In this document: one piece after another, positions 1-64,000 of the stretch
How positions within the stretch are numbered: the first letter of the stretch is position 1
Layout of the letters: each line of letters opens with the position of its first letter
From: Azolla caroliniana
Lineage: Eukaryota; Plantae; Polypodiophyta
Length of the DNA: 64,000 nt
Assembly: GCA_043228905.1 (NCBI GenBank)
Contig: JBHGNT010000007.1
Coordinates: forward strand, 22,444,001-22,508,000
Reading direction: 5' to 3'
Notes under the pieces: generated by a model
Seen by the model: only the letters and a program-made list of their open reading frames with translations
What the model was told of the DNA's origin: nothing
The model's database searches: none
Program-made: the position numbers and the translations under genes

Positions 1-480
1 TTTATTATGTCTATCGTTGTCTTCCTTAAACTTCCAACTTTTGTCAATGTAAAGTCATACACAATGATATTCACCTCACTAGGGTCAATGATAGATGTAT
101 TACAAAGGTTTAATGTATCACCACATCCCAAACTTTACCAATCCAGAATTGGTGCCCTAGGTCATGGCCATCTACATGTGTAACTATTAATATCCCCACC
201 TTGAGTTCTTGCAAGTTTCCTTGTCACCTAACTTATGCTTGTGTTGGCATCCTTGGTTCGACATAAATGTTTCTTTGTTGTGGATGGACCAAACTATGAA
301 GATAAACATTAAGTGCTTGAAGTGGTGATTGAGACCATAAGAATATTTTATAGACCATGTAAACGACATTTCCAAGGTTCAATTACCGTCAACACAATTA
401 TCAATGGTTTTTTGTTGATCAATGAAGAACATGTTCACCATAGTGTATCTTGTTGTGCAACATAATTCTTTGCATTATCA
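1..480 (-). pseudogene. Degenerate coding remnant, possibly the C-terminus of a DNA-transposon protein
   Basis: Minus strand reads in broken frames as ...ELKVGILIVTHVDGHDLGHQFWIGKVWDVV...LYDFTLTKVGSLRKTT. It looks protein-like and has stops and frameshifts; family not established. Confidence 0.3.
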
Positions 481-501
481 ATATGCTTCTTTTTCTCTTG
501 T

Positions 502-1092
502 AAAAACAAAGATTTTAGTACAATTTGAGTTCTTGTTTAAAAAAACTCTTTTATTTGAAAAAAAGAGAACATTTTAAAACATGAACTCGATACATTGTAT
601 CGATTTGATGTAAAAAGGAGAGTTTCCATCACAATTTGATACAATGTATCGAATTCATGTTCAACATTTTTTTTCCCAAATTAAAAAAAATAAAATAAAA
701 TTTTGAGCTTGAGTTGATGAAAAAACTAGAGTTTTCATCACAATTTGATACAATGTACTGAGTTCATGTTTAAAATATTTTTTTTAAATTTTTTTATGGG
801 AAAAAAACATTAACATTAATTCAATAAATTGTATCAAATTGGGATGAAAAATCTGGTTTTTTCATCACTTCAAGCTCAAAATATATTGAAAAAAAATTAA
901 AATAAATAGAAAATTAAAATAAAAAAACAAAAAAAACTTTAAACATGAACTCGATACAATGTATTGAGTACATGTTGAAAACTCAACTTTTCAACGTGAA
1001 CTGGATACAATGTATTGAGTTCCTGTAAAAAATAGAGTTTTTAGCATGAACTCGATACATTGTATCAAATAGTACTACGAAATCTCTGTTTT
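502..1092. repeat. Foldback-like array of ~7 palindromic motifs (CATGAACTCGATACA(T/A)TGTATCGA-like)
   Basis: Copies at ~580-603, 635-659, 744-768, 814-838, 944-974, 995-1024 and 1045-1070, in both orientations, separated by A/T tracts. The ends 502-528 and 1065-1092 are imperfect inverted repeats. Confidence 0.75.
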
Positions 1093-1506
1093 ACTATTAA
1101 AATGATCGAGTTGCTAAATAAATTATATATTTTCACAAGATTTTCCATTAGAAAAATTGCTTGATGGGGGTGTTTTTATTACGCTATTTAGTATTTGTTT
1201 TGCATATTGTTTAACAAAAATTCATTAATTTTTGCGATATTTCGCATCTACCTGTCTCTTTTAGGTATTTCAAGCCCTTTTCTAGAGTTAACCGAACTTT
1301 AAACATATAAGTTGTTAGAAATTACTTATTGGTTCATATAATTGAGTTTCTCAATATTTTTTGATCTTGTGCCTACAAGGACAACTGAATATCAGGATGA
1401 GTGTACGGTCAAGAAAATTTGTTTGAATAATTGAGGCTCGCCTTTAGAATTTGCTCAACGTGAGAAAGCCACGTATAGTCAGAGAGCAAAGTAATATTGT
1501 TCAACA

Positions 1507-2107
1507 ATGATATACCAAGATAGTGATGGTAAGAAATTGAGAGAAGTTAAAGATATTGTTGATTTTCCTACCTCATTTCTTGCACATCTTGAAAGAGCGC
1601 GGAAAGAAAAGGACTATCGTTGTGTGAAGGCATATGGTGTAGAAAATGGTGGCACTTTTAAGAAATTTAGCTACAAAAAGGATGTCACATGGAATTTATA
1701 CTAGAATGTCTATTGTGGTGATGTGGCTGAGATGATACACATATTGCCAACAAAGGAATACATATTATTGATTGTTGACATACCATACGGATTTCGTATG
1801 GTTGGATCAACATACGATGATGAAGCATTTATGTTTAAACAACTTGAGAAGATGGTGAAAGATTTCGCACACACAATATCCTTATGGAGAATTGTTGTAT
1901 TCCATAGCATGACCAAGGATACTCTATAGCACAGGCCTTGAGATCTCATTGCCATGAAATAGAAAACCTTGCTTAATAAGGAATATTTGTCTTACATGGA
2001 GAATTTTGATTTTCCCATCAATACATTCCACTTAATATTGATATTTTTCATTTGAAATGTTCTCCAATGAAGGAGATTGGATACTAGATTTGTTCTCCGG
2101 CTCGGGT
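1507..2107 (+). pseudogene. Decayed beta-class DNA amino-methyltransferase (N6-adenine/N4-cytosine type)
   Basis: ORFs 1507-1704 and 1723-1929 are one frame split by a TAG: NVYCGDVAEMIHILPTKEYILLIVDIPYGF (motif IV, DIPY at 1777-1788). At 2051-2107, FEMFSNEGDWILDLFSGSG (SAM-binding motif I) is followed by a GTAAAT donor-like site. Motif IV precedes motif I, the beta-class order. Confidence 0.7.
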
Positions 2108-2944
2108 AAATTATTATAACTTCGTTTGCTATGCCTTTAGAAATCAATATAGTTTATGTTTAGCTAAATCAATCGTCATTTTAAATTGTTAATGTGTACT
2201 ACATTTGCATCTACATTAAAGCTATTTAGAAATACCATTGCACTTAAAAAGGATAATAAGCAAGTGAGTTTCATTAACACGAGGATTAATGCCTTAACAT
2301 TTTCAATATGCATTCCATGAGCCTATTCCTTCATTAGCTGGTGAACCTAGGGAGTTTATTGATTTTGTCAACGAGCTATTTGAGGACCCTATCCTTACTA
2401 GCCTATGTGGAGCAGATAATACTGCACAAATTTTGTAGGGGGGCTCTCAAAAAGAAGAAGAGGAAAGCAATGTGGATATCCTGATAACTGTGTGATATGT
2501 TCAAATGGATATATTAATGTTCACATCTAAGTTTGATAGATTATGAATATTGTGTACATTTATTGAGTTGTGAATTTATGGATGTTGATGAGCACTAAAT
2601 TTATAGTTGATGACACTAAGGATTACAGTGTTACGCTTCAACAATTGATTGTGTCTAGAAACATGATGTTATTCAGGAGTTTAGCGGCATGGTGGAGCAA
2701 GAATGGGGATAAGGTAAATCAACAAAATTTTAAGTATAAAAAGTTGAGAACAAACTGTAGCTACAATCCTAAGTTGATTAACAAGGATGGATCATTGTCG
2801 GAGGATGTATTTGGAGATCATGGAGGTAGTCACAATTCACTATCGTGGGCTACTCTCATACAATTATAGTATTTCCCCGAACAACCTACTCTAACAGAAC
2901 TTGTTTGATCAAGGCAAAAAACCAGGGTGGACTTGGGTTGGTGG

Positions 2945-3281
2945 TGTGAGGAATAGACGCTTGGCCACAACCGAGTTGAACACTCAATGGAAGATCTAAA
3001 CAGAAATGGAGATTAATACACTTAGACAACAGAGAGGACACATGATGTTTACGTGGAAAACCCTAATAGGGAAAAACCACAGGAACCCACAGACTCGAAC
3101 TATCACTATGAGAAGAGAGGGTTACAACGCGAGACTCAGAGGCAACGACCTCGAGCTCTATGCCTTCGCCAAACAGGCGGTTACAACAAAAAATCCTTTA
3201 TGTATCTCTCTCTCTCTCTCCACACTATGTACAACAGATAATAACATGTATACAGTGATTGACCTAAGTCATATTTATACT
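2945..3281 (-). mobile_element. 3' half of the Copia-B 3' LTR, separated from its 5' half at 48532-48692
   Basis: Has the Copia-LTR-like motif GATGTTTACGTGGAAAACCC...GGGAAAAACCAC and ends in CA on the minus strand at 2945. Its start (AGTATAAATATGACTT) continues the LTR fragment ending AAGTCATATAAGTAT at 48692. Confidence 0.6.
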
Positions 3282-3991: not shown

Positions 3992-6900
3992 TCATTTCCA
4001 CCCAAGTCTCTCAAAAAGAAGTGGGAGGTCAAAAGTTTTTGGTGTGGGTGTGACCCATGGTCCCGATGCATAGAGTGCCCTAGCCATGGCTTCTAGGCGG
4101 TGTAGTTCACGTTCCCTTATTTTCTTTATTGCTTCTCCATCCCGTCGAGTTGCTTTGAAACCTGGCATCCAAGGGCGTTTGGTTCTTCTTTGATTTTCTG
4201 CTTCATCAAGGAAAAGCCTGAGTGGTGCAGGTGTGTCGACATTCATTGTCTCCCCCTGTTCCTGAAAAACTTCATTTGTTACATGTTGGTAAACATTAGC
4301 AACATTATTATCAACGTTTTGTAACTTATTCTCTCTGTGTTGTTTCAATTCTAAGATGTATCTACCTAATTTCTTTATATCTAGTGTATCTAATAGTTTA
4401 GGGAGGGTGGGAGAGGAACCAAGTATGTCTTGGTATTTTGCCCTTATCTCGGCATAGGTGGGGCATTTGCATGTAAAATGGTACTCATCCTCTATCTCTA
4501 TGTGGCATAACCTACATATCCTTTCCTCCCTAGAGACTCCATTAGTACGTCCATTCATAATCTCAAGTTGGTGAGATGATATTCTAAGTTGACCAATGGC
4601 AACCCTTAGTGCATGTGGTAAGAATACATCTAGATATTTTGGGCGCGTGATAAAACCTAACTCAGAGAAGTGCATAAAGTGTTCCTTATAGTACGCCATT
4701 TTAGATGGGAGTGGCTCTAGTGGGGTGATCCATTTATACTGAGTATAAATTTGCCATATTTCTTGGCGTATTACTTTATTACGGTCCTCATGAGAGATTA
4801 AAGTGTTATCAGTCGTGTGGTCATACTTAAGGGGGGGGAGGTTATTAATGTCTAGACCGTTGGCAAGAAGCCAACTCACCATCATGCCATACCATGAGCT
4901 AGTATAGCCGAACTCATACAGTGCTCGAGAAGCCTTAAAGGCTTGGTGGGATATTCTATCAAGTGGTTGGTTATGTATCCTGTGGATAAAGACTACAAGT
5001 TGAAAAAGTGCTTCTACTAACACAGGGGGTAGAGTGAACTCAACCCTAATAATGTCATGTGGGACCGACGATTTGCTTCGGAGTTGGCGTGATAACATCA
5101 TCACCAATGGTCTCTCTAATTGCGTCCACATGAAAGATGGTAGTCCTGGAGCCCAAACCGCTGATGCATACATGAGAGAGGGAGTCACTAATGAGTCAAA
5201 GAGCCACCCTTTAGTTCGTGGCTCTTGGAAGTATGCTTGGTGGCATTGTCTCTCGAGGAGTGAGAGGGATGCATGTCCTCTTGTAAGTCTATCCTTCGCT
5301 GCTTGTGTCATCGAAAATTTACCTAAGCGGGCACTGAAAGTGACTCCGAGATAGACATATGATCCAACCACCTCAACTGGGCTATGGGAGATAGTTAGGT
5401 GACACTTAGCTCTAACTTGGGCCGACGTGTGGAAGATAAGGACTTTAGTTTTCCCTAGATTCACTACCAATCCTCGTTGTGTGCAAAAGTCATCTAAGGC
5501 ATTAAGGTGCCTTTGTAGGTCGTGTTCGGATTCAGAGAGCAAAACTATGTCGTCTGCATAGAGCAAGATACGCACCTGCGTATCCCCAAGGACTACTCCA
5601 TTGCCTCCCTTACCAGCAATAAAATTTGTGATCTCATCAATGTAGATCCCAAAAAGAGTCGGAGATAAGGGGCAACCTTGTTTTACACCAATAGTGCTAG
5701 TGAAACTCTCAGATATGCCGCCTGGGCATCGAACACACCCAGACACTTGTTCATATAGTGCGTAGATGGCCCAAACCATGTCATCTGGTATCCTCAAGCT
5801 CTTAAGCCTATCAAACAACCGCTCTCTAGGGACCGTGTCAAAGGTTTTGCGGAAGTCCACAAAACAACAATATAGTTTCTTCTTACGAGCCTTAGTCTGG
5901 TCAATTAAGCATCTAAGTGTGAAGATATGATCAATAGTGGAGAAGGCTCATCTAAAGCCAGCCTGTTCAGGTGCACGAAGATTTAAGGTCTCCATATACT
6001 CGCTAAGCTCTGCCTCCATTAATGCACCATATAATTTAGCAAGGGTATGACCTATCATAATGGTCCTATAAGTATTTGGGTCCATGGGGTCCCCCCCTTT
6101 ATGTATGGGGGCCATTGTGTTCATGGTCCATTGTGGTGGAAAACCCTCTGCGAGGGCACGATTGAAGATTAGAGTTAGCAAGGGAGCTAGGCACTCTCTC
6201 GCATATATGATGTGTTCTGCTCGCAATCTTGTGTGGTCGATGGACTTCCTATGTTGTAATTTCTTTATGACCTTCATGACCCTAGAGGTCGTGAAGAGTG
6301 TCCCCACAGTAGGTCGGGGTGTAGAAGGCATTGGAATGGGTGGTTGGTTTGGGATTTGGTAAAGTCTCTCTGTATAAGTGTGCCAAGTTTCGGGATCTTC
6401 GATGGGTGTTTGTGGTCTTGGTTCCCGTAATCTCTTCCATGCAGTGGCACAATCGCTACTCATGAGCATATGGTAGAGTTCCCAATATTGGGATGGCTCC
6501 CATGCTCGTCTCTTATGATGTGTCATCTTGCGCATTTCTTTACGAGCTTGTACTGAGGTAATACTACCATTGAGTTGCGATATTGTAAGTTGTCTATGTA
6601 AGCACCTACAATCCGCATCATACCATCTATTTTGTGGCATAGATCCTACTTTACCTTGATTGGAGTGTTTCGTGTATGGGAAACTGCTAACTGCTGCAGA
6701 GTGAAGGATGTGTGTGAGTTTCGTACTAAGGCTCTCTAAAGGTAGGGAGGGATCAAGGGAGGAGAGATGGGCTTGAACATGTTGAGCATATATGTCAGAG
6801 AGCTCATGTGTGAAATGTATTGTGATGTCATGGCGTGGTTGACTAGAGTTGGTGACATTAGAGATATCGCATTTTAGCTCGAAGTATAAGAAACTATGGT

Positions 6901-7735
6901 CCGCGCCAATAGGACATGGGGCCATTCGGAAGGAGTTAATCATGTGGGTAGCTTCAGGGCATCCTATTAGATAATCAACTGTGTTTTCCCCTCCTCCATG
7001 TGGGAAACATGTGAGCTCTTCTGAACCTGGCCACTTGGCTAAATCATTATATATGACCATTTGGTGCCGACTGCCGAGTTCGAGCAAATGATGGCCAAAG
7101 CTCGTGGCGTCCACACCTTGATCCTTTGATCTACGTGTGGTGTCTATGTCTAAAGGATCAACATTTACCATTTCTAGGTTTCTATTCATTTGAAATATTG
7201 TGCATTGTCGGGATTGGGTTCTCGCATTAAAGTCTCCTACAAGGAATACTTCTCCTTTGGAAGAATATTGGATTATGTCATCCGATAGAGGTTCATATGG
7301 GGAAGGCCCATGTGGCACTCCGTCATCAACTAATCTCGCCTCGCCAGCCAGATTATAACGAGAGCCTTTCGGGGGAAAGTAACAAATGGCGAAAAATACT
7401 GCCTTGTCCTTGCTTGTGGAGACTTTCACCCACATAAAACGAGCTTCTGGGTTTGTGCTCAGTATTTCTATCATATTATGTAGCTCCCTCCGAAACAATA
7501 TTGCGACACCTCTAGATCCCCTGGTAGTGCATCGACGTGAGGTTTGTCTAAAAGCCGACTCCCAACGAAATCCTTCGACTCGTGGGAGTCCCCTATTTGG
7601 GCTTTGGTGTGTTTCTACTAGGCAAACTATATCTGATTCCTTTAATATCCCCTCTAGGCGGCCGGGGTGTGTCCAGAGTGCGCCGTTACAATTCCATAAG
7701 GTCATCCTAAGTGTGTTTTTTGTCACATGGGCCAC
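3992..7735 (-). pseudogene. LINE ORF2: APE endonuclease-reverse transcriptase with one in-frame stop
   Basis: WNCNG, LVET, GDFNA, DY and ADH endonuclease motifs. QAGFR* at 5948-5950 continues in frame to AFSTIDHIF...FVDFRKTFD, GVKQGCPLSP and LYADD. C-terminal LRISSHQLEI..GR..ERICRLC..EDEYHF..C. Confidence 0.92.
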
Positions 7736-7741
7736 ACGCCG

Positions 7742-8548
7742 TCAATTAGTAGTACGATCATTTATGATCACTCGCCCATCTCGATAAAAGGCGCGATGCC
7801 CGTCTTTACGAGCTTGCATAACATTTGACATACAACTCTTGCGATGCTCAATTTGTATCTTGGTGAGGTCTTCATCGAGATAGATAGGGTCCCCACCCAA
7901 TCCTCGAAGAACTGGTCTCTTCTTAAAGAAAGTGATTCTAGAGTCTAAGTCTTTAAATTGAAGAACTAAGGCTCTCTTCCTAGTTGTGTCGCGTCCGGCC
8001 CTCCAAGCTTTGGTGATAGGTAGGGTCGTTGTGTACCCTAACATTTTCCCGAGTGTTTGTGCATCCTCGTCCGGGGATGCATCTTCCTTGAGCCCAGTGA
8101 CACGCACATTTAGGCGTCGGGCCTGACGCATTTTCTCCTCTTCGAGGGTGGTATTAACAATATTTTCATCCTTTATTTCTTTTTTAATGTTTCTTTTAAC
8201 CACATCTACCCAACCCGTTTTTGCTAACTCTATGTTATTTTTAACCTCCCCTTTAACTTTTTTGATCTCATCTTTTATATCCTCTATGGAGGATATTTCA
8301 CCGTCCTCTCGGGATACCTTGATGTCATTAAGTTGTTGTTTGAGGTTTGTGTTTTCCTCTTTAAGTTTTTCTATTTCGGCCTTGAGGGTGTCTTTTTCCT
8401 CTCTATCTTTTTTCTTGTGGGTTTCGGCGTCTTTCACCCATTTTTTAATATCCATCTCTATTTTTGTTAAACAGTTAAACATATCCAAAAAGTCCTCCTT
8501 ACTTATAGCCTCGTCTTGTGTATCCTTGTGTTCCTTTCGTTTAGACAT
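7742..8548 (-). CDS. LINE ORF1p (coiled coil plus RRM-like nucleic-acid chaperone)
   Basis: Intact 268-aa ORF directly upstream of ORF2; heptad-rich N-half, then RRLNVRVTGLKE and IYLDEDLT motifs typical of LINE ORF1. Confidence 0.8.
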   Translation of the reverse strand: MSKRKEHKDTQDEAISKEDFLDMFNCLTKIEMDIKKWVKDAETHKKKDREEKDTLKAEIEKLKEENTNLKQQLNDIKVSREDGEISSIEDIKDEIKKVKGEVKNNIELAKTGWVDVVKRNIKKEIKDENIVNTTLEEEKMRQARRLNVRVTGLKEDASPDEDAQTLGKMLGYTTTLPITKAWRAGRDTTRKRALVLQFKDLDSRITFFKKRPVLRGLGGDPIYLDEDLTKIQIEHRKSCMSNVMQARKDGHRAFYRDGRVIINDRTTN

Positions 8549-9407
8549 TGTAGTGTCAATAAGAAAAAAAAAAGGATAAAATAAATGGGTTCGAGACTTA
8601 GCCGAGTTTGTGTGTATGTCGTAGTCACATCAGCATTTTGTATGTGACGAGCACACTAAAAGAACAAGGATGCGCCGCCAAGAAAAGAAACACGACACTC
8701 AGCAACCTCAAGAACAAGGAGAAGAACACGACAACGGCAATGGCGACTACGACGGACGATGACAAACGGCAGCAGGTCGTCCAACACGCAGATAGCAGAC
8801 GACGACGGACGTCAGAGGCGGCAGCGCGGCAACAGACGACAACACGATGGGGGGGGGGAGAAAGAAAGAAAGAAAGAAAGAAAAAAAGATATATTAACGT
8901 CTTCTAAGGCCAAATTTGGCCCATGAGACAATTGGTTTACAAGAAAAGAGTATTTATCTAGTCATCATAACTATTTATCACGACCGTTGCAGAGAAGATC
9001 TGTCAGTTCTCGTGTGAGAGAGAAAGAGAGTGTGTGTGTAAGACGTCACTTCTATTCACAAAGAATTATGAATATAAAAAAAAAGAAGCCAACCTCGCCC
9101 CCCCCCCCCAAAAAAAAAAAGCCAAACGAATATCGCGTATCATACGCGTACGTTTGCAAACGTTCGTGTACGTCCAGTAAATTGGACGTACGCGAATATT
9201 AGGAACTATGCTTCCAACAATAACTAAGTTACAAGGGGTTGGTTTAAATACCAACTAAACTAGGGCAAGTGCCCTTTCTACTATTTACAAAACTAGCTTG
9301 GTATGACCATAAGCTAGTGTGAAACCTATTACTATGGGAAGTTGAGTTCGACTCTCAGCACACCCCTTCGAACACAACTTCCATTTGTCGAAAAGTTGTT
9401 TCGGTTC

Positions 9408-50117: not shown

Positions 50118-51430
50118 ATGGTTCTCACTTGTAGAAATATCTTTGAATCAATAGCCATGATGACCATACTGATGGGTGTATTAATGGTGATGGTAATGTT
50201 GACCATGCCAGTAGATGGTGCGACCTCAAGTCCAGATCCGAATACCATAAAGTATGTGATGTTGACAACTGTGTCGAATCGAGAGAGAGCTCGTTGCTTG
50301 GCTCACAATAGTTGCTACCTAAAAACCCTCACATGCCCCTCCCAATGTGCGAAACGCATCAACCCCATTGCTGGAAAACCCTCATGCTTCATTGATTGTT
50401 CCACCAAATGCCAAACTACATGCAAAAGTAATCAATTATCGATTAATTTGTTCATTTTTATGTGATTCAATATGATCTTCTCATAGCCATATGGCACATT
50501 GTGTTTTCATACATGTTAAAATAATATTTTAAAAGAGGTTAATAAACATGCATCATCTTACTTCTGTAGAGCGTAAACCGAAGTGCTCTGGCTACTCTTC
50601 TGTTTGCTACGATCCACGCTTCGTTGGTGGGGATGGTGTCATGTTCTACTTCCATGGAAAGGCCAATGAGGATTTTTGCCTACTATCTGACACCAACCTC
50701 CATGTGAATGCACATTTCATTGGCCTTCGCCCGCAAGGTCGGACACGAGACTTTACTTGGGTCCAAGCTCTAGGTATTATGTTTGATAACCACACATTTA
50801 GCATCGGTGCCAAGAAAGTGGCCACATGGACCAATACCGATCATTTCGTGTTCACATATAATGGACAAGAGATTGAATTGGAAGTCGGTGTTGGCAACAC
50901 TTGGAGCTCAGAAATGGGGGAGGTTGAGTTACAGAGGACTTCCGAGACTAATACTATTCAGGCTAGTATAAAACTCAAGTTAAATATTACAAATTTTGTT
51001 CTTTCGCTAATTACAAAATTTTATTTCATCTATATAGGTGGTTATTGACGGAGGTTTGATGGGCATGACCATAGAGGTGGTTCCTATCTCAAAAGAGGAG
51101 GATCAACTACATCATTATGAGTTGCCCGAAAATGATTGTTTTGCCCACCTTAATATCCAATTCAATCATTTCCGTGGCTTATCCGACAATGTGGATGGTG
51201 TGCTAGGACAAACCTATCGACCAAACTTTAAGAACCCTGTCAAAGCAGGTGTACCTATGCCTATCATGGGTGGTGAATCCAAATTTAAGGCCTCTTCCAT
51301 TTTTTCAACTGATTGTATTGCCTCTAAGTTCCATCAAATCTCCAAGTCTTCATCTGCTCTACCTATTGTAGACTTCACTGCACAATGCACATCATCTTCC
51401 AACAATGGTGGTATTGTTTGTCGTCGCTAA
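50118..51430 (+). CDS. Root cap / late-embryogenesis-abundant-related secreted protein (3 exons: 50118-50427, 50570-50961, 51038-51430)
   Basis: Signal-peptide-like N-terminus and Cys-rich domain, then CYDPRFVGGDGVMFYFHG, RDFTWVQALG, DCFAHL, VDGVLGQTY, MPIMGG and GGIVCRR*. Exon phases are consistent; intron 2 needs a GC donor. Confidence 0.9.
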
Positions 51431-58100: not shown

Positions 58101-61100
58101 GGAAGGTACAGTAATGGGGTAGCTAGATCTTTATCCAAACCATAGCTATCTAGAATTTATCTCTAGCCTCGTTATCCTCATTAAGGTCATGGGTATGTAC
58201 ATACCATAAGCACATTCTATCCTACTTTGAAAGGTTCATGAACACTTGAGGTAATGCTGTAGGTGTTGCAATGGAGCTAGAGGATTCTTTATATCCCTTG
58301 CTAAGAGAGGTGAATCTTGGTACGGACCCCTATGAAGTGTTTCGTGATGCGGATTGGGCTCTTCTGATCGGCGCCAAGCCCCGTGGTCCAGGAATGGAGC
58401 GTGCGGACCTTCTTGATATCAATGGACAGATATTTGCGGAGCAGGTGCATTTAATACATACATACATACATACATATACACATACATACACATCTATATA
58501 TATATATATACATATATAAGAAGGCACACCAATGCACCTGTAACCTTTTGCATATTTACCAGCATACCCAATGGTTAACCCCTAACATTTTGCATTTTTA
58601 CTGAGGTACAGCTAATTAATAAGCTTACTCAACTCCTAATGTTAGGGGTTCTCTAATGTTTTTCATGTTTACCAGGATATCCTTTCAGTTTCGGAAACTG
58701 CCAGAATACCCCTCGGTTCACCAAAATATCCCTAATTAAGCTTAAGCAACACTTATATACATGGTTTGAATGCATATATAGCATCATTGTCTTTTATGAC
58801 TGGCAATCATTTCAACCTATTTTCTTTTTCTCTTTCCAGGGGAAAGCTCTTAATGCAGTAGCTAACCAAAATGTGAAGGTTATCGTTGTTGGGAACCCTT
58901 GTAATACAAAGTATGTGCTTCAATATAACCAAATTCTATATGTTTCTGTTCTATAATGGTGTGACTAGGTCTTCCATTAACTTAAATTGTGTCTTACAGT
59001 GCGCTGATTTGCATGAAGAATGCACCGAAAATTCCAAAGAAGAATTTCCATGCCTTAACTCGGCTGGATGAGAACAGAGCAAAATGTCAGGTGAGCAAAT
59101 TTTGGCATTTTTTGGTTTTACGAAATCTTTACTGATGTTATGAGCATATATCCATAACCTTAGTGAGACAAAAGCCCATGTATAGGATTCAATGTTTTTT
59201 TGGTTATTCCTCATGCTGTGTCACCATATGTAAGTGAGCTCAATCGTACTCATGTTATGAAGAGAGAATTATTACTTTCCATGGTACTTTTCTTCACTTT
59301 CTTGCTTGCACTAACTGGTTGTGATGCATGATTACCCTAACATACATTGATCCACCCTAGATTTACAACCAATTATAAGGTCAAGACCCAGTATTTATAG
59401 GTCAATCTCTGGGTTGTTGACTCCCTAAGATTATGTCTATGCCCTTACAACAACCAAGAGTATATATGAAAGATAGTAAAATTTGATCCTCATCGATCTC
59501 TTTGTTTCGAGATGTTCACGAGCAGCTTGCTCTAAAAGCAGGGGTTTTCTATGACAAAGTCTCCAATGTGACTATCTGGGGCAATCATTCTACTACTCAG
59601 GTAATTAATCATTTGTTTGTTTTTTCCATTATTATACTTAAGCAATAAATAGGAAATAGATTCCGTTATGATCATGAAATAACTTATTATAACCTAGTTA
59701 TTTCTCACAAAGGAAAACAGCTTAACAAACCCTCTTCATCTGTCAGGTGCCTGATTTTGTGAATGCCAAAATCAATGGAAAACCTGTGACTGATGTTATT
59801 AAAGACCAGAAATGGTTGGAAGAAGAGTTCACACCAACAGTTCAGAAGGCAAGACATATAAATCACATGTGAAGGCTGTGACTATAGTCATAGTAGCGAA
59901 ATGTGTAAAAAATAACTGTGTTCTTTTGCAGAGGGGTGGTGTACTAATAAAGAAATGGGGCCGATCTTCGGCAGCGTCGACAGCTGTTTCTATTGCTGAT
60001 GCTATGAAATCCCTGGTCACACCGACAAAAGAAGGGGATTGGTTTTCTAGCGGAGTAAGCTTCGAGGATTTCATGATGATTTGTACATGTATTTATATGT
60101 ATGCATGTTTATGTATATGCATACATACACAAACGCACACACTCTCTCTCTATTTTATATATAAACATGCACTTAAATGCAGCCATACATACATAAAATA
60201 TACTATATATATATATATATATATCTACCACAGTATATGTATGAATGTTAACATGTGTACATACACACATTCAGATACGTATGTATATGATTTTTTTGGG
60301 CTAATGCAACAGGGAGATACACACACATAATATGATTTTATTTTGCACCTGTTGATAGGTATACACAGAAGGGAACACATATGGAATTGACAATGATCTG
60401 GTTTTCAGCGTCCCTTGCAGATCGAAGGTGAGGAATTATTTCAATTTCGTAACAGCTTCCTAAACTCAGAGACCAAAGTATATATGTCTTCCTATGTGCC
60501 ATACAACATACCTGAATTTTAAAAGAATTTGCTGTGAGAGTGTGAGATCTTGATCAATCTCGGGAAAGTAAAATAACAGCCCTTACATTTATGCAGAATT
60601 TTTCAGTAAACATTTTTCTCCGACGGAAAAGAATCTTGATCCAATGGAAAATGACAACCCTTAAATTTATGCAATATTTTTTAGTTAACATTTTTTTCTG
60701 AAATAATTATGGATGAAATGAAGTGATTCAAAGATGCTGTGAAGATAAAAAACAGAGAAACATATCAAGAAAATAAGAAAGTGCCAAGCCGAAATATTTA
60801 AGAAATGACAATAAAATAAACAAGGCAGTTCCTATGTGCATGATCATTTGAATGTGTGGGCTCCTTTTAAATACATATTGCATATATGTGTAGATATATA
60901 TGCATATGAATATACATCTGTAGATGTATGAATTCGACATGACGTATGTTTGTATACATGCACCGTCATTGCATGTTAGAAAGCTCGGACTTGCACTGCT
61001 TGAAGTAAAAACATTTAATTGCATTGATCTACAGGGTGATGGAGACTACGAGATAGTCCCGGATCTGGAAATTAATGATTGGCTTGCTGAGCGTATCAAG

Positions 61101-62874: not shown

Positions 62875-64000
62875 TCACTTTGGCACTTCTATGATGCGTC
62901 TGGCACGAGGTTTTAATGTAACATAGAACCCCTCTTTCATGTACAAAGTGGTGCATAGTTTGGGAACAACCTTGGGCTTATGGGGAGCTAGGACAACATG
63001 GAAATTGATGATGATGGTGGAGGCGACAACCTTCATGAGTATGTATGCCATTTCCTTACCAAGACATGTGCGTGGACCCGCATTGAATGCGACGAATTCA
63101 AAAGGCGATGCATTGGTGAGTCTACACGATGGTCCATCACCATATAGCCATCGCTCGGGTCGAAAGGATGCACAATCCGGGCCCCATAGGCTCTCCATCC
63201 GGCCCATGCTATAGATATTATACAAAAACCTTTGGCCCTTTTTCACATGGTTACCATCTGGTAGAACATCATCTTGGACTACATACTTCATGTCGATGGG
63301 CACGGACGGGTAAAGACGAAGGGATTCGGACAACGCGGCATGAAGATAGGTCATGTCATTGAGCTTCTCGCGGGTGTGGACGGGGACACCATCGTGAAGT
63401 AGTTGGTTTGCATCACTACCGAGTATTGTCTCGATTTCGCGTGCTAGTTTTTCTTCGACGTGTGGGTGTGAGGCTAGGAGCCAAAAGAACCAAGACAAAG
63501 CTAGGGCAGAGGTGTCCCGACCGGCCAACAAGAAGTTAATAACAACGTCCTTGAGGAACTTGTTGTTGTGGGCGTGGTCATTCGTCTTGTCCTCCATCTT
63601 GATGAAGCAAGACAAGAGGTCAGAATGAGGGGTATGTTTAAGATGGCCACTCGGTTGGACATGATCGACGCGATGACCATTTGGGTGGCCAATGAAGTCA
63701 TTTCCATTTGGGCAGGCAATGTCGATGTGGTCGTCCGGATGCACATTGGCATCGTGTGCACTCGGGTTCACATTGGCATTGTCTGTATTTGGGTGCACAT
63801 AGTCGGCATTGGTCCCAGAAAGTGCGGCCCGGCGATCGTCCACAACTTGTTGAAGGAAAGAGTCTACGCATCGGAGCGCGGAATGCATGCCCGATTCCTT
63901 GCCGAGCCGTAGGAGTTTGAGTAGCTTCCACGAGGATGGAGGGAAATTGAATCGGGAAGTTGCGCAATCGAGCGCGGTCTCGAACGCGGATGCGAATGGG
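62875..64000 (-). CDS. Cytochrome P450, CYP86 clan (fatty-acid hydroxylase-like), 5' end outside the window
   Basis: Frame open from the window edge; FLLAGRDTS I-helix, ESLRLYP (ExxR), FRPERW and FNAGPRTCLG heme motif; no intron in the visible part. Confidence 0.95.
   Translation of the reverse strand, partial: PFASAFETALDCATSRFNFPPSSWKLLKLLRLGKESGMHSALRCVDSFLQQVVDDRRAALSGTNADYVHPNTDNANVNPSAHDANVHPDDHIDIACPNGNDFIGHPNGHRVDHVQPSGHLKHTPHSDLLSCFIKMEDKTNDHAHNNKFLKDVVINFLLAGRDTSALALSWFFWLLASHPHVEEKLAREIETILGSDANQLLHDGVPVHTREKLNDMTYLHAALSESLRLYPSVPIDMKYVVQDDVLPDGNHVKKGQRFLYNIYSMGRMESLWGPDCASFRPERWLYGDGPSCRLTNASPFEFVAFNAGPRTCLGKEMAYILMKVVASTIIINFHVVLAPHKPKVVPKLCTTLYMKEGFYVTLKPRARRIIEVPK

Follow-up and report, generated by a model that had tools for sequence, protein, structure and literature searches.

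Among the closest described systems is Sola1-1_Ec32 of the brown alga Ectocarpus, a Sola1 transposon that carries a gene with ParB-like and N4C/N6A methyltransferase domains on the strand opposite to its transposase. According to the accessible text, its authors propose that the encoded protein binds and modifies its own element (PMC12477816). In the red alga Bostrychia, Plavaka (EnSpm) elements with the accessory genes PAG2 and PAG3 have a ParB-like protein beside tandem inverted-repeat arrays; this protein is likewise proposed to bind its own element, and a PF01555 methylase is carried along (bioRxiv 10.1101/2025.02.11.637652, main text). That transposons bind and mark themselves by means of ParB-type accessory proteins has so far been suggested from the genomes of algae. 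A tested precedent for self-targeting comes from the VANDAL transposons of Arabidopsis, whose VANC protein acts on repeated motifs of its own family and causes loss of 5mC; the accessible text does not describe it as a methyltransferase (PMC5735166).

Bacterial-type amino-methyltransferases are also present in multicellular eukaryotes, as MpDN4MT1 of Marchantia and N4CMT of rotifers. These are host genes with an SPPY or TSPPY motif that write 4mC, and the accessible portions of the two sources mention no ParB domain in them and do not describe them as transposon-borne (PMC8885841, bioRxiv 10.1101/2021.02.12.428880). Sola1 elements of ferns and mosses have a 4-bp target site duplication (TSD), of a length also seen in one of four complete contigs of the family described here; no methyltransferase cargo is mentioned in the accessible texts (PMC12973397, PMC10741241).

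Here, we analyzed a stretch of 64,000 nucleotides of Azolla caroliniana (the window). Positions 1 to ~2500 hold a Sola1-like DNA transposon copy that is dead and has internal deletions. Intact relatives of this copy are 7.6-7.8 kb long, have terminal inverted repeats (TIRs) and carry a DUF7869 transposase opposite a gene for a fusion of ParB-fold, helical and beta-class amino-methyltransferase parts. The family is a land-plant member of the kind proposed from algae, with a predicted function. Likened by description, it shares with Sola1-1_Ec32 the two-gene opposite-strand architecture and the same hypothesis; the algal element is 21.5 kb long with a 1104-aa protein, whereas the land-plant elements are compact, and they have both a palindrome array and a selection test, neither of which is mentioned in the accessible text on the algal element (PMC12477816). 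The Plavaka elements, by contrast, belong to another superfamily and have two separate genes, one that joins ParB to a 2OG oxygenase and one that joins the methylase to a SET domain (bioRxiv 10.1101/2025.02.11.637652, main text). The difference from VANC is that a writer enzyme is predicted here. With the bacterial PF01555 enzymes M.MboIIA, CcrM, M.RsrI and M.BceJIV the family has in common the motif order IV...I, the fold and sequence similarity, but it has DIPY or DIPH instead of DPPY, contains introns, is fused to a ParB part and sits on a eukaryotic transposon. A survey of eukaryotic adenine methyltransferases, in its accessible part, shows no such land-plant clade and few of these enzymes in land plants (PMC4738411). 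We found no land-plant report of a ParB-methyltransferase transposon in the literature searched, which comprised open-access papers and the main texts of bioRxiv preprints.

Results

Anatomy of the window copy

A sequence-only reading had described positions 1507-2107 as a decayed mobile-element copy with a bacterial-type, beta-class amino-methyltransferase gene. Homologues, fold, intact loci with TIRs and a transposase remnant inside the window all bear this out. The methyltransferase relic is real, yet it is one part of a larger element, which comprises the following features:

3-503, minus strand: remnant of a DUF7869 (Sola-type) transposase (tblastn with the transposases of loci L070 and L033, E 2e-18 and 2e-5)
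587-1068, no strand: decayed array of a 17-bp gapped palindrome, TCGATRC-N3-GYATCGA, between two divergent genes; candidate binding sites
1380-1510, plus strand: start of exon A of the ParB-methyltransferase gene (nhmmer with the family DNA profile, E 2.4e-9 over 946-1510; translation)
1511-1526, plus strand: junction of a ~2-kb deletion that took away exon B and, with the ParB and helical domains, the remaining part of exon A
1527-1975, plus strand: exon C, methyltransferase motifs III-VI, with DIPY at 1777-1788
2051-2105, plus strand: surviving 3' end of exon D (last 55 nt) with motif I, DLFSGSG (PF01555 match; alignment to L075)
2106-2195, plus strand: intron, placed as in relatives, which still has its GT donor but no longer the AG acceptor
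2196-2495, plus strand: exon E, methyltransferase motifs II-III and acidic tail (tblastn; nhmmer E 9e-53; alignment)

The left edge of the window cuts into the element, and the remainder of the transposase gene and the left end lie beyond it. What is left of the transposase corresponds to C-terminal residues ~624-833 only and has stops and frameshifts; the catalytic core, whose motifs occupy residues 359-482 of the intact ORF, is absent. The start of exon A is preceded by AG at 1378-1379 and has two in-frame stops inside, and neither its ParB part nor exon B matched anywhere in the window (tblastn, nhmmer). Seven database fragments carry the peptide that crosses the first deletion junction. 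Exon C has suffered a TAG at 1702, a 6-nt deletion near 1875, a 1-nt frameshift at 1910 and loss of the donor GT at 1976; its stop-free stretch (1705-1926) contains the DIPY motif. Most of exon D is lost, including the upstream part with NPYQKP, and exon E has a 56-nt deletion at 2295. The AG before 2196 is present in another copy, seen in loose ends of read contigs.

Both motifs quoted in the sequence-only reading lie where it had placed them, GDVAEM...LIVDIPYG in one frame and FSNEGDWILDLFSGSG in another, the latter at 2060-2105 with a GT donor directly after it at 2106-2107. Of the signature that was read from them, the order stands, as motif IV (1777) precedes motif I (2087) here and also in relatives; the DPPY does not, the family motif being DIPY and not a decayed DPPY. 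The TAG said to be read through is not within the quoted peptide but just upstream of NVYCGD (1702-1704). Nor is the ~270-nt gap between the motifs a single intron, because it holds the frameshift at 1910, the destroyed donor at 1976 and the deletion of most of the NPYQKP exon. The suspicion that the gene contains introns was correct, as the exon-intron structure of relatives and the conserved position of the intron at 2106-2195 show, and the gene extends past the GT donor into the exon at 2196-2495. A guess at a ParB-like domain also proved right for the intact relatives, by fold matches; in the window copy the domain is deleted. The Pfam comparison that had been proposed gave a divided answer: the motif I piece (23 aa) alone matched N6_N4_Mtase (PF01555) with E 4.6e-4 and 20.6 bits, below the cut-off of 26.7, and the motif IV part had no match to PF01555.

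In a tree of 42 rows with long branches, the window copy groups with L075-type loci (support 99/94). The pN/pS values on its branch are 0.081/0.55, with 16 of 34 changes being C>T or G>A, and they mix the time before and after the death of the copy. Profile searches found no TIR in the window, and the GTT at 2903-2905, considered as a right terminus, was dropped on that ground. A very high-copy repeat begins abruptly at ~2901 and runs to ~3150, with loose ends at 2901 and depth up to 6e5; it is LTR-like by eye and may interrupt the right end of the element. At 2490-2630, depth is 3-5 times that of the neighbours in three runs, probably due to another small repeat.

Intact relatives of the methyltransferase gene

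A phmmer search with the read-through frame returned 86 proteins at E<=1e-3, mostly short fragments, many of which stop at one same tryptophan that marks an intron position common to the family. Over 132 aa, the window region shares 77% identity with an intact relative. Seven of 10 long relatives that we looked up are named, one from Ginkgo biloba, three from Riccia sorocarpa, two from Adiantum nelumboides and one from Diphasiastrum complanatum, and they thus span liverwort, lycophyte, fern and Ginkgo. Ginkgo has five models in total (four more after the first), which account for five of the six proteins found when the read-through peptide was used in an alignment search; searching a word index for longer proteins with this peptide returned nothing. 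The Diphasiastrum gene model (P0018) joins a P450 model to methyltransferase exon C, probably because the element is inserted in or beside a host gene or through an annotation artefact.

For the Ginkgo protein P0044, PF01555 matched with E 7.6e-18 and 65.7 bits (cut-off 26.7), and the nearest solved sequences are RsrI, MboIIA and CcrM. Its predicted methyltransferase structure, with a mean pLDDT of 50.8 and higher values in the catalytic core, matched the same three enzymes in Foldseek at E 1e-11 to 1e-9 (MboIIA, E 1.2e-11); PvuII and the rotifer N4CMT matched as well, at E 3e-8.

A metagenome scan gave 236 pattern matches, of which 106 were confirmed and 79 loci kept, a single assembly often having many divergent copies. 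At the DNA level, window positions 1541-1980 are 74-76% identical to the closest loci. The intact gene has five exons, A to E, and its intron positions, like the gene itself, are conserved from liverwort to Ginkgo. For 15 out of 16 loci with all anchors, a single stop-free GT-AG spliced frame of 668-723 residues runs from the ParB domain to the C-terminus, in a test that allowed several splice-site combinations. Full-length stop-free versions of exons C, D and E are present in 59 of 79, 54 of 68 and 47 of 60 loci, respectively. Motif IV is DIPY in 54 loci, DIPH in 22 and missing in three, a census biased by a scan pattern that favours these two forms. Each of the 76 loci that have the motif retains the Asp; the aromatic residue and QKP are kept as well, whereas the first Pro is replaced. 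SPPY, the N4-cytosine form, occurs in none of them. Of 65 long loci, 44 have DLFSG[TS]G as motif I, eight have an altered form, and in 13 the motif was not found.

To assess selection, we picked 13 loci, 11 of which have exons C-E all present and give 55 pairs. The seven pairs with measurable dS have dN/dS of 0.018-0.122 (median 0.041), and the other 48 are saturated. Between L070 and L066, the ParB exon (dN 0.063, dS 1.86) and the transposase (dN 0.10, dS 0.77) behave alike. The intact fusion is under strong purifying selection.

A scan of viral contigs gave three pattern matches, none confirmed, and thus no close viral relative; in a scan of genome contigs for prokaryotic relatives, one of 34 pattern matches gave a weak match of 19 residues. 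Remote prokaryotic relatives could escape both scans, and two bacterial DPPY/RAMA methylases do match at E 1e-7. Loci L001-L024 form an AT-rich clade with DIPH as motif IV, which groups with Ginkgo in the tree and has a different terminus and no such palindrome as described below.

Transposase, ends and superfamily

The transposase (~890 residues; DUF7869, E 1e-52) is present in nine of the 79 loci, and 70 have none within the contig. It lies head-to-head with the methyltransferase gene in L070, L066, L033, L035 and L053; many other contigs start within or just before the palindrome array. Copies have a common terminus ending in GTGTT, beyond which their flanks differ. Four contigs (L033, L066, L070 and L053) have both TIRs, spanning 6.0-7.8 kb. 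One of them, L066, has a 4-bp TSD and is inserted in a Gypsy pol region; the flanks of the other three are unmatched, and these may be collapsed copies.

The transposase has three conserved Asp motifs at residues 359, 440 and 482 that would form a DDD triad. For Sola elements in general, a DDD transposase and a TSD of 4 bp are reported (PMC10741241, accessible text). The 26-bp TIR of a Sola1 cluster from Cibotium barometz starts with AACACC and, by eye, agrees with the TIR of L033 at 16 of the first 19 positions, in a table whose TIR and representative-sequence entries appear shifted between rows (PMC12973397). The Sola2 motifs DF[AS]ENY, SDG..QYKN and ATSHGK..CDG, taken from a published alignment (PMC3627910, supplement S10), differ by eye from DGMDQKK, QLDNT and GHTHDHIDQ of the transposase here. 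Because the element differs from Sola2 in these motifs, has a fern Sola1-like TIR in L033 and shows a candidate DDD triad and, in one contig, a 4-bp TSD, we refer to it as Sola1-like. A BAH domain at the C-terminus of the transposase found no support in PDB sequences or Pfam.

At two loci (L072, 3280-5669; L027, 3993-6332), a second similar element is apparently nested in or beside the first one, as indicated by extra TIRs, by a 10-palindrome array downstream in L072 and by a truncated transposase in L027.

A phased palindrome array between the two genes

The family palindrome, [TC]CGATRC-N3-GYATCG[AG], lies between the two genes. Of 20 long DIPY loci, 17 have it upstream of the methyltransferase gene; none of three long DIPH loci does. 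In the window it is found with at most two mismatches at 587, 636, 951, 1002 and 1052 and with three mismatches at 745 and 821. These first five are among six matches with at most two mismatches in the whole window; shuffled sequences averaged 0.64, and none of 100 reached six. Within clusters, the window palindromes are 49-51 bp apart. Across the family, 23 distinct spacings cluster near multiples of about 10.4 bp, with a mean cosine of 0.49. Four of 10000 random sets reach this value, which is not a strict probability as the loci are related. Each of 62 exact palindrome matches has two CG dinucleotides, which the pattern itself requires. We ruled out that the repeats at 500-1100 are subterminal repeats, because they sit between the two genes. 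At one locus of the AT-rich clade (L013), the stretch from the transposase remnant to the gene contains an 87-bp tandem repeat as well as a block of GC-rich repeats.

The ParB-type part

In Foldseek, the structure predicted for exon A of relatives (mean pLDDT 81.6) finds ParB, Noc and KorB, with E 2.3e-5 over ~290 columns for ParB. Against PadC (VIA) it has a Z of 9.8 and an rmsd of 2.9 over 100 aligned residues, and against pNOB8 ParB (VIA) a Z of 8.1 over 205. PHROGs gave only weak ParB matches (E 0.11 and 0.14). In relatives, the predicted models thus have a ParB/Srx fold at the N-terminus and a helical DNA-binding domain after it. The arginine of GxxR belongs to the nucleotide-binding motif of CTP-binding ParBs. 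At the ParB box, nearly all loci of the family have GG[SN]HS and not GxxR, so we file the domain as ParB-like and not as a ParB CTPase. The ParB half of the protein is as conserved as the catalytic half.

What the fusion protein may do

We have little doubt about the identity of the element as described. As a whole account, it is rather probable that the window copy is a dead non-autonomous Sola1-like derivative of a family whose intact ParB-fold/methyltransferase fusion likely binds the array and likely writes N6-methyladenine on that same family; the self-marking mechanism, taken by itself, has an even chance of being right. Under this account, the ParB/helical part would recognise the helically phased palindromes and the methyltransferase would write 6mA on copies of its own element family. 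Adenine is the predicted target because motif IV has Asp, which marks N6A enzymes, and not Ser, which marks N4C enzymes. The mark may keep the element active or readable against silencing by host 5mC, and derivatives like the window copy could be served in trans, since they kept the array.

Several observations count against the account. Motif IV is DIPY or DIPH and not the canonical DPPY, the ParB box is without GxxR, and the DIPH clade keeps the gene without palindromes at its long loci. A TSD in one of four complete contigs only, and a window in which no TIR was found, weigh on the same side. Other transposon-borne adenine methyltransferases gave no 6mA in E. coli, according to the accessible text of a preprint (bioRxiv 10.64898/2026.05.21.726589).

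The self-marking idea is now directly testable, given the compact intact elements, the phased candidate site, the purifying selection and deletion derivatives that can serve as natural controls. If true, it would name the writer of a non-5mC mark in seed-free plants and gymnosperms and offer a sequence-addressed epigenetic tool. One may go further and propose that the ParB-fold protein loads on parS-like palindromes between two promoters, spreads, lays a family-specific 6mA anti-silencing mark and serves array-keeping derivatives in trans. This longer chain of steps is, in our opinion, doubtful; if it held, a transposon-written adenine mark would have been maintained from liverworts to Ginkgo, with bacterial-centromere-style addressing in Sola1-like elements of land plants.

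The same element could also encode a fusion that has lost methylation and serves as a DNA-binding accessory, that is an anti-silencing factor, autoregulator or transposition cofactor, like VANC or the TnpA of CACTA elements. We consider this unlikely. In favour of this reading are a motif IV that departs from the canonical form (54 DIPY and 22 DIPH among the 76 loci that have it) and the equal conservation of the ParB half. VANC, too, works through internal repeated motifs, and the accessible text does not call it a methyltransferase (PMC5735166); the negative E. coli results for other TE-borne adenine methyltransferases (bioRxiv 10.64898/2026.05.21.726589, accessible text) point the same way. 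However, the SAM-binding motif I keeps its canonical form in most of the long loci, the Asp, aromatic residue and QKP are retained around motif IV, and dN/dS is low across the catalytic exons.

An active enzyme might instead write N4-methylcytosine, for example at the CG of the palindromes, and block host 5mC. PF01555 includes enzymes of either chemistry, PvuII and the rotifer N4CMT are among the fold matches (E 3e-8), all 62 exact palindromes have their two pattern-required CG dinucleotides, and Marchantia provides one plant precedent for 4mC. The motif argues otherwise: in the accessible portions of the sources, N4C enzymes have SPPY or TSPPY and N6A enzymes DPPY (PMC8885841, bioRxiv 10.1101/2021.02.12.428880), whereas the residue here is Asp, and it is N6A enzymes that the family resembles most in fold and in sequence. 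We hold a 4mC writer to be quite improbable.

That the relic stems from one host gene, acquired horizontally or domesticated and since decayed, or from contaminating bacterial DNA, and has nothing to do with transposition, would agree with the conservation of the gene and its intron positions from liverwort to Ginkgo and with the 70 of 79 loci without a transposase within the contig, but it is already largely refuted and barely credible in view of the spliceosomal-type introns, the many divergent copies per assembly with flanks that differ after a common terminus, the TIRs, the TSD in L066, the transposase remnant in the window, and prokaryotic and viral searches that gave one weak 19-residue match and no close viral relative.

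An amplified non-autonomous subfamily

The window copy itself is dead, and the main addition of this locus is the non-autonomous subfamily to which it belongs. We mapped contigs from four public DNA runs, with three organism labels, to window positions 1000-3100. The runs gave 3604, 3517, 2654 and 575 contigs, mostly 80-95% alike. Among the contigs listed, some that differ by 12-18% run across the junctions at ~1520, at ~2000-2050 and at 2295, so the deletions of the window copy predate an amplification. As these three deletion junctions are common to other copies, we place the window copy in an amplified non-autonomous subfamily. The base missing at 1910 is retained by most other copies, and this frameshift therefore arose later. 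Most of exon D, the ParB domain and the core of the transposase are gone from the window copy; the palindrome array was kept in the subfamily.

Surroundings in the window

The element copy lies in plant sequence dense in retroelements. A LINE-like element at 3992-8629 (minus strand) has long open frames for an endonuclease (PF03372), a reverse transcriptase (PF00078) and an ORF1-like product, and it is followed by a stack of Gypsy-type and other LTR retroelements at 10296-47000 with several long open pol frames. An exon at 50533-51048 (plus strand) has no Pfam match at E 0.001; we take it to resemble a root-cap/LEA-related protein. Host genes are further represented by an exon of malate/lactate dehydrogenase (PF02866) at 59803-60330 (plus strand) and by a cytochrome P450 gene (PF00067) at 62875-64000 (minus strand).
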